Shown piece by piece: positions 45,487 through 46,301 of a stretch of 64,000 nt of DNA. The notes beneath the pieces were generated by a model, which made no database searches, had not been told where the DNA came from, and saw only the letters and a list, made by a program, of their open reading frames with translations. The position numbers were made by a program, and so were the translations under genes. Position 1 is the stretch's first letter. Each line of letters begins with the position of its first letter. Source of the DNA: an uncultured Candidatus Peribacteria bacterium (GTDB taxonomy: Bacteria > Patescibacteriota > Gracilibacteria > RBG-16-42-10); contig CAZERA010000001.1 of the NCBI GenBank assembly GCA_964514565.1, positions 372,001 to 436,000 of the forward strand. Direction: 5' to 3'.

Positions 45487-45499
45487 GTCAGAGGTACAA

Positions 45500-45515
45500 T
45501 CCCGCAGACGCGGGA
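45500..45515. repeat. REP-like palindrome TCCCGC-AGAC-GCGGGA (copy 3)
   Basis: same stem with a different loop; flanked by the direct repeat AGGTCAGAG at 45485-45493 and 45518-45526. Confidence 0.65.
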
Positions 45516-45559
45516 AGAGGTCAGAGATTTTATGTGGAAGCTTTTTTACTTGTTTGGTT

Positions 45560-45588
45560 TTGCAATGTGAGATGTGTTCGTGTAAAGT
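45560..45588 (+). promoter_or_regulatory. sigma70-type promoter of rpsU
   Basis: TTGCAA-N17-TAAAGT. Confidence 0.5.
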
Positions 45589-45606
45589 TATTGGGCTTTA
45601 ACTTTT

Positions 45607-45617
45607 GAAAGGAGGTG
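45607..45617 (+). promoter_or_regulatory. extended Shine-Dalgarno site of rpsU
   Basis: GAAAGGAGGTG ending 4 nt before the ATG at 45622. Confidence 0.85.
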
Positions 45618-45621
45618 CTGT

Positions 45622-45816
45622 ATGACTTATGTTCTTCGTCAGAATAACGAATCCGTAGAAAAAATGCTTGGTAGATTCCGTCGCAAAGTAATGGCCGATG
45701 GTGTCTTGACCCGCGTACGTGCTCGTAAATATCACGCCAAAAAATTCTCTAAGCGCCAACAAAAAATTCGCGCTCAGTATCGTGTTGCTAAGCAAACTGC
45801 TGAATTAAGCGAATAA
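45622..45816 (+). CDS. rpsU: 30S ribosomal protein bS21
   Basis: 64 aa, basic; NESVEKML.RFRRKV...G.L...R.R.Y..K.S. Confidence 0.88.
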   Translation: MTYVLRQNNESVEKMLGRFRRKVMADGVLTRVRARKYHAKKFSKRQQKIRAQYRVAKQTAELSE

Positions 45817-45818
45817 TT

Positions 45819-46301
45819 GTGATCGCCAATTTGCTAGTGGTGTCTCGAATTAGTATTAAACCTCATGTCCAAAAAGTACTTCGTACTCTCTGGCATGAGG
45901 TTTGTTTGTATGAGGGTAAAGATGTAGAAAATGCTACGCTCGATATATATGTTGTTGGAGAAGGAAAGATCAAACAAGTCAACAAGCAATATCGGGGGAT
46001 TGATAAGGTGACCGATGTGGTATCCCTAGATTTTGGGGTGGATGAAATGGGTGAGAAGGTTGCTGTTATTTACATTGCTGCTGCGGTATTGAAGCGTGTT
46101 GCTTTCCAGATGAAGCATGGTTTTGAGCAAGAGCTGGTTTTTATTGCTTTGCATGGCATGCTCCATGTGTGGGGACATGACCACGAGCATGTGGATGAGG
46201 AAAAGAAGATGCTACAAGCAAAAGAAATATTATTACAAAACTTTCCTCGTTATTCACCATTATTAAGCACATATAGAAGCCGGTCTTTGTTTGACTCTTG
46301 A
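45819..46301 (+). CDS. ybeY: rRNA maturation endoribonuclease YbeY
   Basis: N.QYRGIDK.TDV.S, HGMLHVWGHDH. Confidence 0.93.
   Translation: MIANLLVVSRISIKPHVQKVLRTLWHEVCLYEGKDVENATLDIYVVGEGKIKQVNKQYRGIDKVTDVVSLDFGVDEMGEKVAVIYIAAAVLKRVAFQMKHGFEQELVFIALHGMLHVWGHDHEHVDEEKKMLQAKEILLQNFPRYSPLLSTYRSRSLFDS

Follow-up and report, generated by a model that had tools for sequence, protein, structure and literature searches.

Why does the gene for ribosomal protein bS21 begin behind an 11-nucleotide (nt) Shine-Dalgarno (SD) sequence in a genome whose other genes mostly have none? This question is raised by rpsU in a 64,000-nt stretch of DNA from an uncultured Candidatus Peribacteria bacterium (GTDB lineage Patescibacteriota; Gracilibacteria; RBG-16-42-10). 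We call the whole stretch the window (G000:C1:372001-436000); it belongs to a genome of 1.12 Mb in 7 contigs with 41-42% G+C. In Flavobacterium johnsoniae and other Bacteroidota, ribosomes that lack bS21 upregulate rpsU (PMC7797042; PMC9976891; 2026 follow-up PMC13000453). A preliminary description of the window had suggested that the same feedback may operate here, having arisen convergently. The answer that we reach is a genomic signature in the Candidate Phyla Radiation (CPR) that combines purging of SDs, an intact 16S tail, an extended rpsU SD and a Lys-to-Tyr change in bS21, and that would fit control of rpsU by bS21.

The SD before rpsU, GAAAGGAGGTG, stands in the local sequence ...aacttttGAAAGGAGGTGctgtATG..., and the ATG that follows it is the sole start candidate in frame. 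The product matches the bS21 family profile with 40.1 bits, above the gathering cut-off of 27. A gap of 6 nt separates the GGAGG core from the A of the ATG, and one of 4 nt separates the whole 11-mer from it. The 3' end of the genome's own 16S rRNA is GGATCACCTCCTTTC, read at the start of contig C2 as AAGTCGTAACAAGGTATCCGTAGGGGAATCTGCGGATGGATCACCTCCTTTCAAGGGAG; therefore, the 11-mer is fully complementary to CACCUCCUUUC, which is the very tail that the preliminary description had assumed. The duplex has a calculated energy of -18.0 kcal/mol. The anti-SD is intact in this genome and in three others of the order, with an identical tail in G000, G004, G005 and G008 among the six order genomes examined; G001 and G006 yielded no 16S end. 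Counted over both strands of the 1.12-Mb genome, the exact 11-mer has three occurrences, with 0.4 expected: at rpsU, at a gene for the nucleoid protein HU on contig C6 and, in reverse complement, at the 16S end. Together with its conservation (below), this pattern indicates that the element is a real, selectively maintained SD that is predicted to pair with the intact 16S tail.

How unusual such an SD is depends on the other starts of the genome. Our gene set consisted of 977 open reading frames (ORFs) from a simple ORF and codon-score caller and is not a curated annotation. Pairing with the 16S tail was scored at positions -20 to -3 with ViennaRNA duplexfold. The longest starts of the 977 ORFs had a mean energy of -0.56 kcal/mol, with 7.1% at or below -4.5 kcal/mol, and the same number of shuffled upstream segments gave -0.57 kcal/mol and 6.6%. 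Internal in-frame starts (n = 878) had a mean of -2.34 kcal/mol, with 18.2% at or below -4.5 kcal/mol. Thus, SD-like sites are rarer at starts than in gene interiors (7.1% versus 18.2%), as they also are in Flavobacteriales (PMC9976891). For 659 starts that were well defined by an ATG lying no more than 15 codons after an upstream stop, the mean was -0.36 kcal/mol and the fraction 5.8%, compared with -5.24 kcal/mol and 52% in an Escherichia coli K-12 control under the same ORF rule (n = 29) and -6.09 kcal/mol and 67% for annotated E. coli K-12 starts (n = 42). The earlier statement that the genome is SD-poor is therefore confirmed. We found no excess of SDs hidden at alternative starts: in 405 long genes, the best-scoring starts of the first 50 codons and those of a segment 100-150 codons deeper gave 38 versus 38 cases at or below -8 kcal/mol and 3 versus 3 at or below -12 kcal/mol. 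The leaders of the 659 well-defined starts are A/T-rich, with G at 8-13% from -14 to -4, and position -1 is T in 65% and G in 3%. The rpsU spacer ends in T, matching this preference, and T at -1 was also frequent in relatives.

Highly expressed genes had been said to lack an SD. Within the window, 7 of 64 ORF starts are at or below -4.5 kcal/mol and rpsU alone is at or below -8 kcal/mol; the DnaK-like start is at +0.5 and the FtsZ-like start at +2.9 kcal/mol. A 20-kb stretch (L051) with the main ribosomal-protein cluster carries the Pfam-confirmed genes for EF-Tu, 24 ribosomal proteins, SecY, IF1 and RpoA, with start energies of +1.3 to -5.4 kcal/mol, except for -8.5 kcal/mol at an upstream TTG of the uL6 gene that is probably not its real start. 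No SD block was noticed before rpsR. That EF-Tu and 24 ribosomal-protein genes have no SD means that the rpsU SD is not explained by being ribosomal or abundant alone. In this CPR order, which lies near Abawacabacteria and Peribacteria, SD sites elsewhere have been abandoned and even purged. Its assignment to the CPR, which the preliminary description considered likely, agrees with the relatives that have a bS21-profile match, namely Candidatus Peribacteria, Candidatus Abawacabacteria RBG_16_42_10 and Candidatus Gracilibacteria. TGA is the stop codon of 107 of the 977 ORFs; therefore, genetic code 11 applies.

A further observation concerns prfB (RF2; G000:C4, L111, reverse-complement index 1421 on), which has a +1 frameshift site, TAT CTT TGA C, after a 22-codon ORF0. 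In E. coli, prfB has the stimulatory internal SD AGGGGG. Here that internal SD has been lost, with AGAGAA at its place; therefore, elongating ribosomes may not use the anti-SD.

Where does rpsU rank among all starts? An exponential fit to the start energies of the 977 ORFs leads one to expect one gene at -13.0 kcal/mol and 0.08 at or below -18 kcal/mol. Two were observed at or below -18 kcal/mol among the longest starts, rpsU and the 91-residue C6 gene, and these are the only two below -12 kcal/mol. When the internal start of a type IV secretion system (T4SS) pilin gene is included, three genes reach this level, against the 0.08 extrapolated. We also scanned the whole genome from every ATG, GTG or TTG that opens an ORF of at least 30 codons. 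This start-anchored scan gave 113 sites at or below -11 kcal/mol, 34 of them within 20 codons of an upstream stop, and among those 34 rpsU and the C6 gene alone scored below -16 kcal/mol behind a non-coding stretch. Next in rank in a non-coding context come ORFs of 30-46 residues at -11.2 to -11.6 kcal/mol. The scan gave no further gene-like case in a non-coding context below -12 kcal/mol and no other ribosomal-protein-like ORF at or below -11 kcal/mol. It replaced a scan with a 14-nt anti-SD query including GAUC, which was too noisy (849 sites, mostly GTGATC matches). McNutt 2023 (PMC9976891) extended the prediction of bS21 feedback across Bacteroidota, including Chlorobia, and its two predictors are a pairing energy of rpsU below -13 kcal/mol and a clear top rank among ribosomal-protein genes. 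Both are true of rpsU here, with the 24 main-cluster genes and the start-anchored scan as the comparison. Chance matching as the origin of the rpsU SD was ruled out by the 11-mer counts, the exponential fit and conservation in relatives.

Thus, rpsU ranks among the three genes at or below -18 kcal/mol, but the expectation that it would be the lone gene with a strong SD did not hold, for the same extended SD stands before HU and before one T4SS pilin gene. The HU element, GAAAGGAGGTGA, lies 6 nt before the ATG and scores -18.7 kcal/mol. The pilin element, GAAAGGGGGTGAG, lies 4 nt before an internal ATG that opens a signal-peptide-like sequence and scores -18.1 kcal/mol; it contains an A-to-G change that keeps pairing as a G-U wobble. 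The SD-bearing pilin is one member of a family with 15-17 paralogues per genome. We found the extended SD before HU in all five genomes tested (four of the family and one of the order) and before the pilin in all four family orthologues. It was absent from the best sister-family match of the pilin (38% identity) and from HU in five other families of the class, three of which have a strong rpsU SD. The lack of the HU SD in these families implies that the HU and pilin SDs are later additions, in the order and in the family, respectively.

The preliminary description had suggested looking upstream of rpsU in relatives, and there the SD is kept throughout the order: GAAAGGAGG precedes rpsU in 8/8 relatives (seven of the family and one of a sister family). 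The block ends in ...GTG in five genomes, ...GTA in two and ...GCC in one, and the flanks vary. At rpsU, HU and the pilin alike, conservation is limited to the block that is complementary to the anti-SD.

We noted two features of the 16S gene in passing. It is split over contig ends, with model positions 9-751 at G000:C5:83891-84644 and the 3' end at G000:C2:1-440, which could be a break in the assembly or could mean that the rRNA gene has an insertion; such insertions are common in the CPR. Directly 3' of the tail stands (A/T)AGGGAG (G000:C2:~425-445, loci L104-L106), kept in all four order genomes with a 16S end. From its sequence, this motif is predicted to pair, within the precursor, with the CUCCU of the anti-SD; similar hairpins exist in Firmicutes.

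Beyond the order, SD poverty extends over the class, with 0-18% SD starts in 11/11 genomes (20-40 kb sampled in each). The bS21 protein is patchy in the class, with a profile hidden Markov model (HMM) match in 57/201 genomes, in agreement with Tsurumaki 2022 (PMC9297842), and it is present in 7/7 genomes of the family. Among 22 other rpsU loci of the class, the SD is strong in three (G043, -20.3; G021, -18.4; G028, -11.8 kcal/mol) and moderate in three more (-8 to -9.3 kcal/mol). Outside the class, we drew on 300 other Patescibacteria and took their 30 top-scoring bS21 loci, a sample biased to canonical bS21, in 27 of which the start was callable. The rpsU SD was at or below -13 kcal/mol in 8 of these 27 and was of the GGAGGTG type, and several others had a GGAGGTG block farther from the start; 38% of 66 neighbouring starts were at or below -4.5 kcal/mol. 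Convergent origin, as first proposed, is therefore doubtful: with strong rpsU SDs in 8/27 other Patescibacteria and also in some other class families, retention is likelier than new gain. A strong SD before rpsU is probably an old feature of the phylum. Probably, too, the class purged its SDs, some lineages kept that of rpsU, and the order copied it onto two more genes. We also observed that in loci L112-L141, from other Patescibacteria classes, a GGAGGTGTTTT-like block precedes many rpsU genes at distances of 7 to ~20 nt; when far from the ATG it is outside the normal SD window.

If rpsU is controlled through the 16S tail, the proteins around that tail should be informative. In the Bacteroidia signature (Jha 2021; PMC7797042), Tyr54 of bS21 stacks on A1534 and the bS21 C-terminus is 'considerably less basic' in Bacteroidetes; bS18 contributes Lys/Arg37, Phe50, Asn56 and Gln58, with a Tyr32 contact; and Trp100, Arg103 and Lys107 of a bS6 C-terminal helix contact the last nucleotides. 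We found that Tyr53 of bS21 is invariant in the seven sequences of the order (alignment A1). In alignment A2, E. coli has Lys54 in this column and four other class families have K, V, K and S; bS21 of G028 also has a Tyr there. HMMER matches to F. johnsoniae bS21 (7jil_z) pair residues 7-53 with 7-54 for the bS21 of this genome and 7-55 with 7-56 for the order profile; therefore, Tyr53 falls on position 54. The Tyr at a position that maps by match coordinates to Tyr54 supports the reading of the preliminary description. A query with the C-terminal 35 residues gave no match among PDB chains at E up to 10. Past Ser43, bS21 has a short tail with an acidic end and a net charge of about +4 as counted from the sequence.

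A recent transfer of bS21 from Bacteroidota was rejected, 7jil_z being among the weakest PDB bS21 matches (27th of 30; E 0.13). The best matches are chloroplast and Firmicute forms, led by a chloroplast bS21 (E 6e-06). Since this bS21 is not close to the Bacteroidia protein, the shared Tyr is a parallel change. The bS18 protein aligns with 7jil_w over residues 9-78 and 23-93, respectively, with one gap, and the C-terminal extension of bS6 contains ...FLGWVRE..., with a Trp, and is partly Ala/Pro-rich and of low complexity.

How might these features work together? The mechanism that we favour is that bS21 gates the use of the anti-SD, as it does in Bacteroidia, and that two more genes are clients; we judge it about evenly balanced between being right and being wrong. 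The 16S tail would normally be out of reach of mRNA in this lineage, so that short SDs would be useless and only very long ones would work. A 30S subunit still without bS21, which assembles late and is exchangeable, would have its anti-SD exposed and would translate rpsU mRNA efficiently. After binding, the C-terminal part of bS21, with its Tyr at the Tyr54 position, would divert the 16S tail, and translation of rpsU would fall. The outcome would be homeostatic feedback on bS21, and HU (in the whole order) and the T4SS pilin (in the family) would be further clients of that ribosome state. We infer that the tail is occluded, that this depends on bS21 and that the feedback runs in this direction. 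SD use here is all or nothing, either none or 11-13 nt. This pattern, the depletion of SDs at starts and the position of rpsU as the sole ribosomal-protein gene with an SD favour an unavailable tail and a link to bS21.

Several observations weigh against this mechanism. Some of them suit a plainer account in which the anti-SD is free in all ribosomes, most genes initiate SD-independently from A/U-rich, G-poor leaders and a few abundant small proteins keep or gain a maximal SD as a strong start site for high output, with no bS21 dependence or feedback; we regard that account as possible but doubtful. HU and the pilin share the element, so the extended SD is not specific to bS21 and its clients include non-ribosomal genes; both HU and pilins usually rank with the most abundant proteins. 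Strong SDs precede rpsU widely in other Patescibacteria, including many that use SDs moderately, and that of rpsU may be just an old strong start site, an ancestral leftover. Sixteen of the 22 other rpsU genes of the class have no notable SD. SD poverty is found class-wide, including in genomes without detected bS21; therefore, bS21 is not the general cause of SD-independence. One SD-poor genome, G029 (97% complete, single contig), gave no match to the bS21 protein query or HMM. The pocket residues of Bacteroidia bS18 are unmatched in either register of an approximate mapping (C, Q, I, S, A at offset 14; R, A, I, T, F at offset 15). The bS6 extension could not be aligned with the F. johnsoniae helix; the alignment with 7jil_k stops at chain residue 95, short of that helix. 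The mapping of Tyr53 to Tyr54 comes from alignment coordinates and not from a residue-by-residue alignment. Because the 16S tail is invariant in the four order genomes with a 16S end, it offers no SD/anti-SD covariation to exploit. However, the account of plain strong start sites does not fit well with other results. EF-Tu and the 24 ribosomal proteins are made at levels at least equal to that of bS21, and their genes have no SD. With a free tail, SDs of 4-6 nt should be useful and common, yet starts have fewer of them than gene interiors do. Duplexes of 11-13 nt exceed the usual optimum for a free anti-SD. The Lys-to-Tyr change of bS21 is specific to the lineages concerned.

A dependence on bS21 could also run the other way, with only bS21-containing subunits using the SD and the three SD genes forming a feed-forward or growth-coupled class. 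Older literature on S21 in initiation, in which E. coli S21 promotes SD/anti-SD pairing, is cited in Chen 2022 (PMC9723584). The patchiness of bS21 in the class, set against its presence in every genome of the family, would agree with this, as would the finding that extended-SD HU and pilin genes occur only where this bS21 type does. However, a stoichiometric ribosomal protein that stimulated its own synthesis would not be under homeostatic control, and with its Tyr and weakly basic tail this bS21 looks like the occluding form of Bacteroidia and unlike that of E. coli; we consider this reversal improbable. Finally, nearly the same 12-mer before three unrelated genes might point to some other factor, a protein or a small RNA, that recognises GAAAGGRGGTGA, with the complementarity to rRNA being secondary. 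We think this very improbable: the edges of the conserved block coincide exactly with the 16S-tail complementarity, the A-to-G variant of the pilin preserves pairing, the 6-9 nt from the GGAGG core to the ATG are SD spacing, and the leader has no significant RNA structure.

Returning to bS21-gated use of the anti-SD, we compared the locus with known systems. It resembles the circuit of F. johnsoniae and other Bacteroidota in several respects: an SD-depleted genome that keeps a canonical anti-SD and has fewer SD-like sites at starts than within genes, an extended rpsU SD below -13 kcal/mol that leads the ribosomal-protein genes and is conserved across relatives, and a bS21 whose C-terminus is weakly basic and which has a Tyr where coordinates map to Tyr54. 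It differs in that the host belongs to the Patescibacteria, the bS21 is remote, the bS18 signature is unmatched, the bS6 extension shows no alignable relation in sequence and the circuit here is a prediction from sequence. In Flavobacteriales rpsU is typically alone, whereas here HU and the pilin share its extended SD; in Bacteroidia the internal SD of prfB is typically kept (PMC10798248), whereas here it is lost. Other Bacteroidia orders (Jha 2021; PMC7797042) also have more than one strong-SD gene in an SD-poor genome, proposed to be clients of bS21- or bS18-depleted subunits. However, the extra genes there (rpsR, rpsA, rpsB and others) encode 30S proteins near the platform, and here they encode a nucleoid protein and a pilin. 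In Francisella tularensis (PMC9578407; PMC13374519), the bS21 content of the ribosome likewise alters which mRNAs are translated, but three bS21 paralogues do so, compared with one bS21 match here, and an extended SD has no known role there. A search of the literature on Shine-Dalgarno sequences in Patescibacteria and the CPR, with subscription journals and supplements outside its scope, gave no report of an rpsU SD or of bS21 feedback in the CPR. The available passages of the 2026 F. johnsoniae paper (PMC13000453) do not mention 'phylum', 'phyla' or 'Patescibacteria', and those from the main text of a Gracilibacteria metaproteomics study (PMC11452946) hold no abundance data for HU, pilin or bS21.

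What would follow if the mechanism were correct? The bS21-gated anti-SD is, to our knowledge, the only well-documented case of a bacterial ribosome regulating one of its own proteins by hiding its mRNA-docking tail, and the cited papers locate it in Bacteroidota, with Chlorobia included, and nowhere else. Such a circuit in the CPR would be much older and wider than thought, or would evolve repeatedly when lineages give up SD-led initiation. HU and the T4SS pilin would be the first hint of such ribosomes controlling non-ribosomal functions. In a bolder form, which we consider rather unlikely, bS21, HU and one T4SS pilin would make up an 'extended-SD regulon' of the order that is read by bS21-lacking 30S subunits with the tail unmasked, ribosome assembly status would directly set the output of HU, as a chromatin protein, and of a surface pilus that serves a host-dependent life, and the gate would be an old Patescibacteria trait and not a Bacteroidota invention, using a different platform pocket and the same Lys-to-Tyr switch of bS21. 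Gating by bS21 would also offer a reason why SD-less lineages retain the anti-SD. In practice, it would give a rule for annotating start sites in CPR genomes.

Table 1. Coordinates of the rpsU locus and of the other genes discussed (positions without a contig are those of the window)
Feature	Position	Strand	Basis or remark
Leader/promoter region between HIT-family gene and SD	45487..45606	+	ORF map
Extended Shine-Dalgarno GAAAGGAGGTG	45607..45617	+	sequence read; 11 nt complementary to 16S tail CACCUCCUUUC
Spacer CTGT	45618..45621	+	between SD block and ATG (45622)
rpsU, bS21, 64 aa	45622..45816	+	ORF; Pfam PF01165 Ribosomal_S21, E 3e-10
ybeY-like gene	45819..46301	+	ORF with H-x3-H-x5-H metal motif; begins 2 nt past rpsU stop
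bS6 gene	G000:C1:366400-367100 (L102:1456-2040)		Pfam domain plus ~90-aa C-terminal extension
HU gene, 91 aa	G000:C6:1048-1323 (L107:1051-1323)	-	PF00216, E 2.7e-30; outside window
T4SS pilin gene	G000:C2:110847-111209 (L108:1850-2209)	-	PF18895, E 2.7e-11, plus TrbC; outside window

The surroundings of rpsU are listed in Table 1. The fold of the rpsU leader at 45575-45670 was no better than that of shuffled sequences (z = -0.35), and a riboswitch-like or structured leader was dropped on this result. A promoter and terminator scan of the rpsU region found one chance-level promoter-like match overlapping the start codon and no terminator, and an Rfam scan of the window returned two tRNAs and nothing else. 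The gene downstream, which we take to be ybeY from its metal motif, is probably co-transcribed with rpsU. Its motif, HGMLHVWGHDHE, lies downstream of rpsU in six of the seven family loci with enough sequence, this genome included, and was not found downstream of rpsU in the order-level genome G008. YbeY is a nuclease of 16S 3'-end maturation; a gene that would be read via the 16S tail thus adjoins one for a putative tail-processing enzyme. Finally, a near-identical stretch (...cttgggaggtaaaaagtaagATG MEEVR...) near two contig ends (G000:C1 reverse index 614207 and G000:C6 index 45037) is probably a repeat that broke the assembly.

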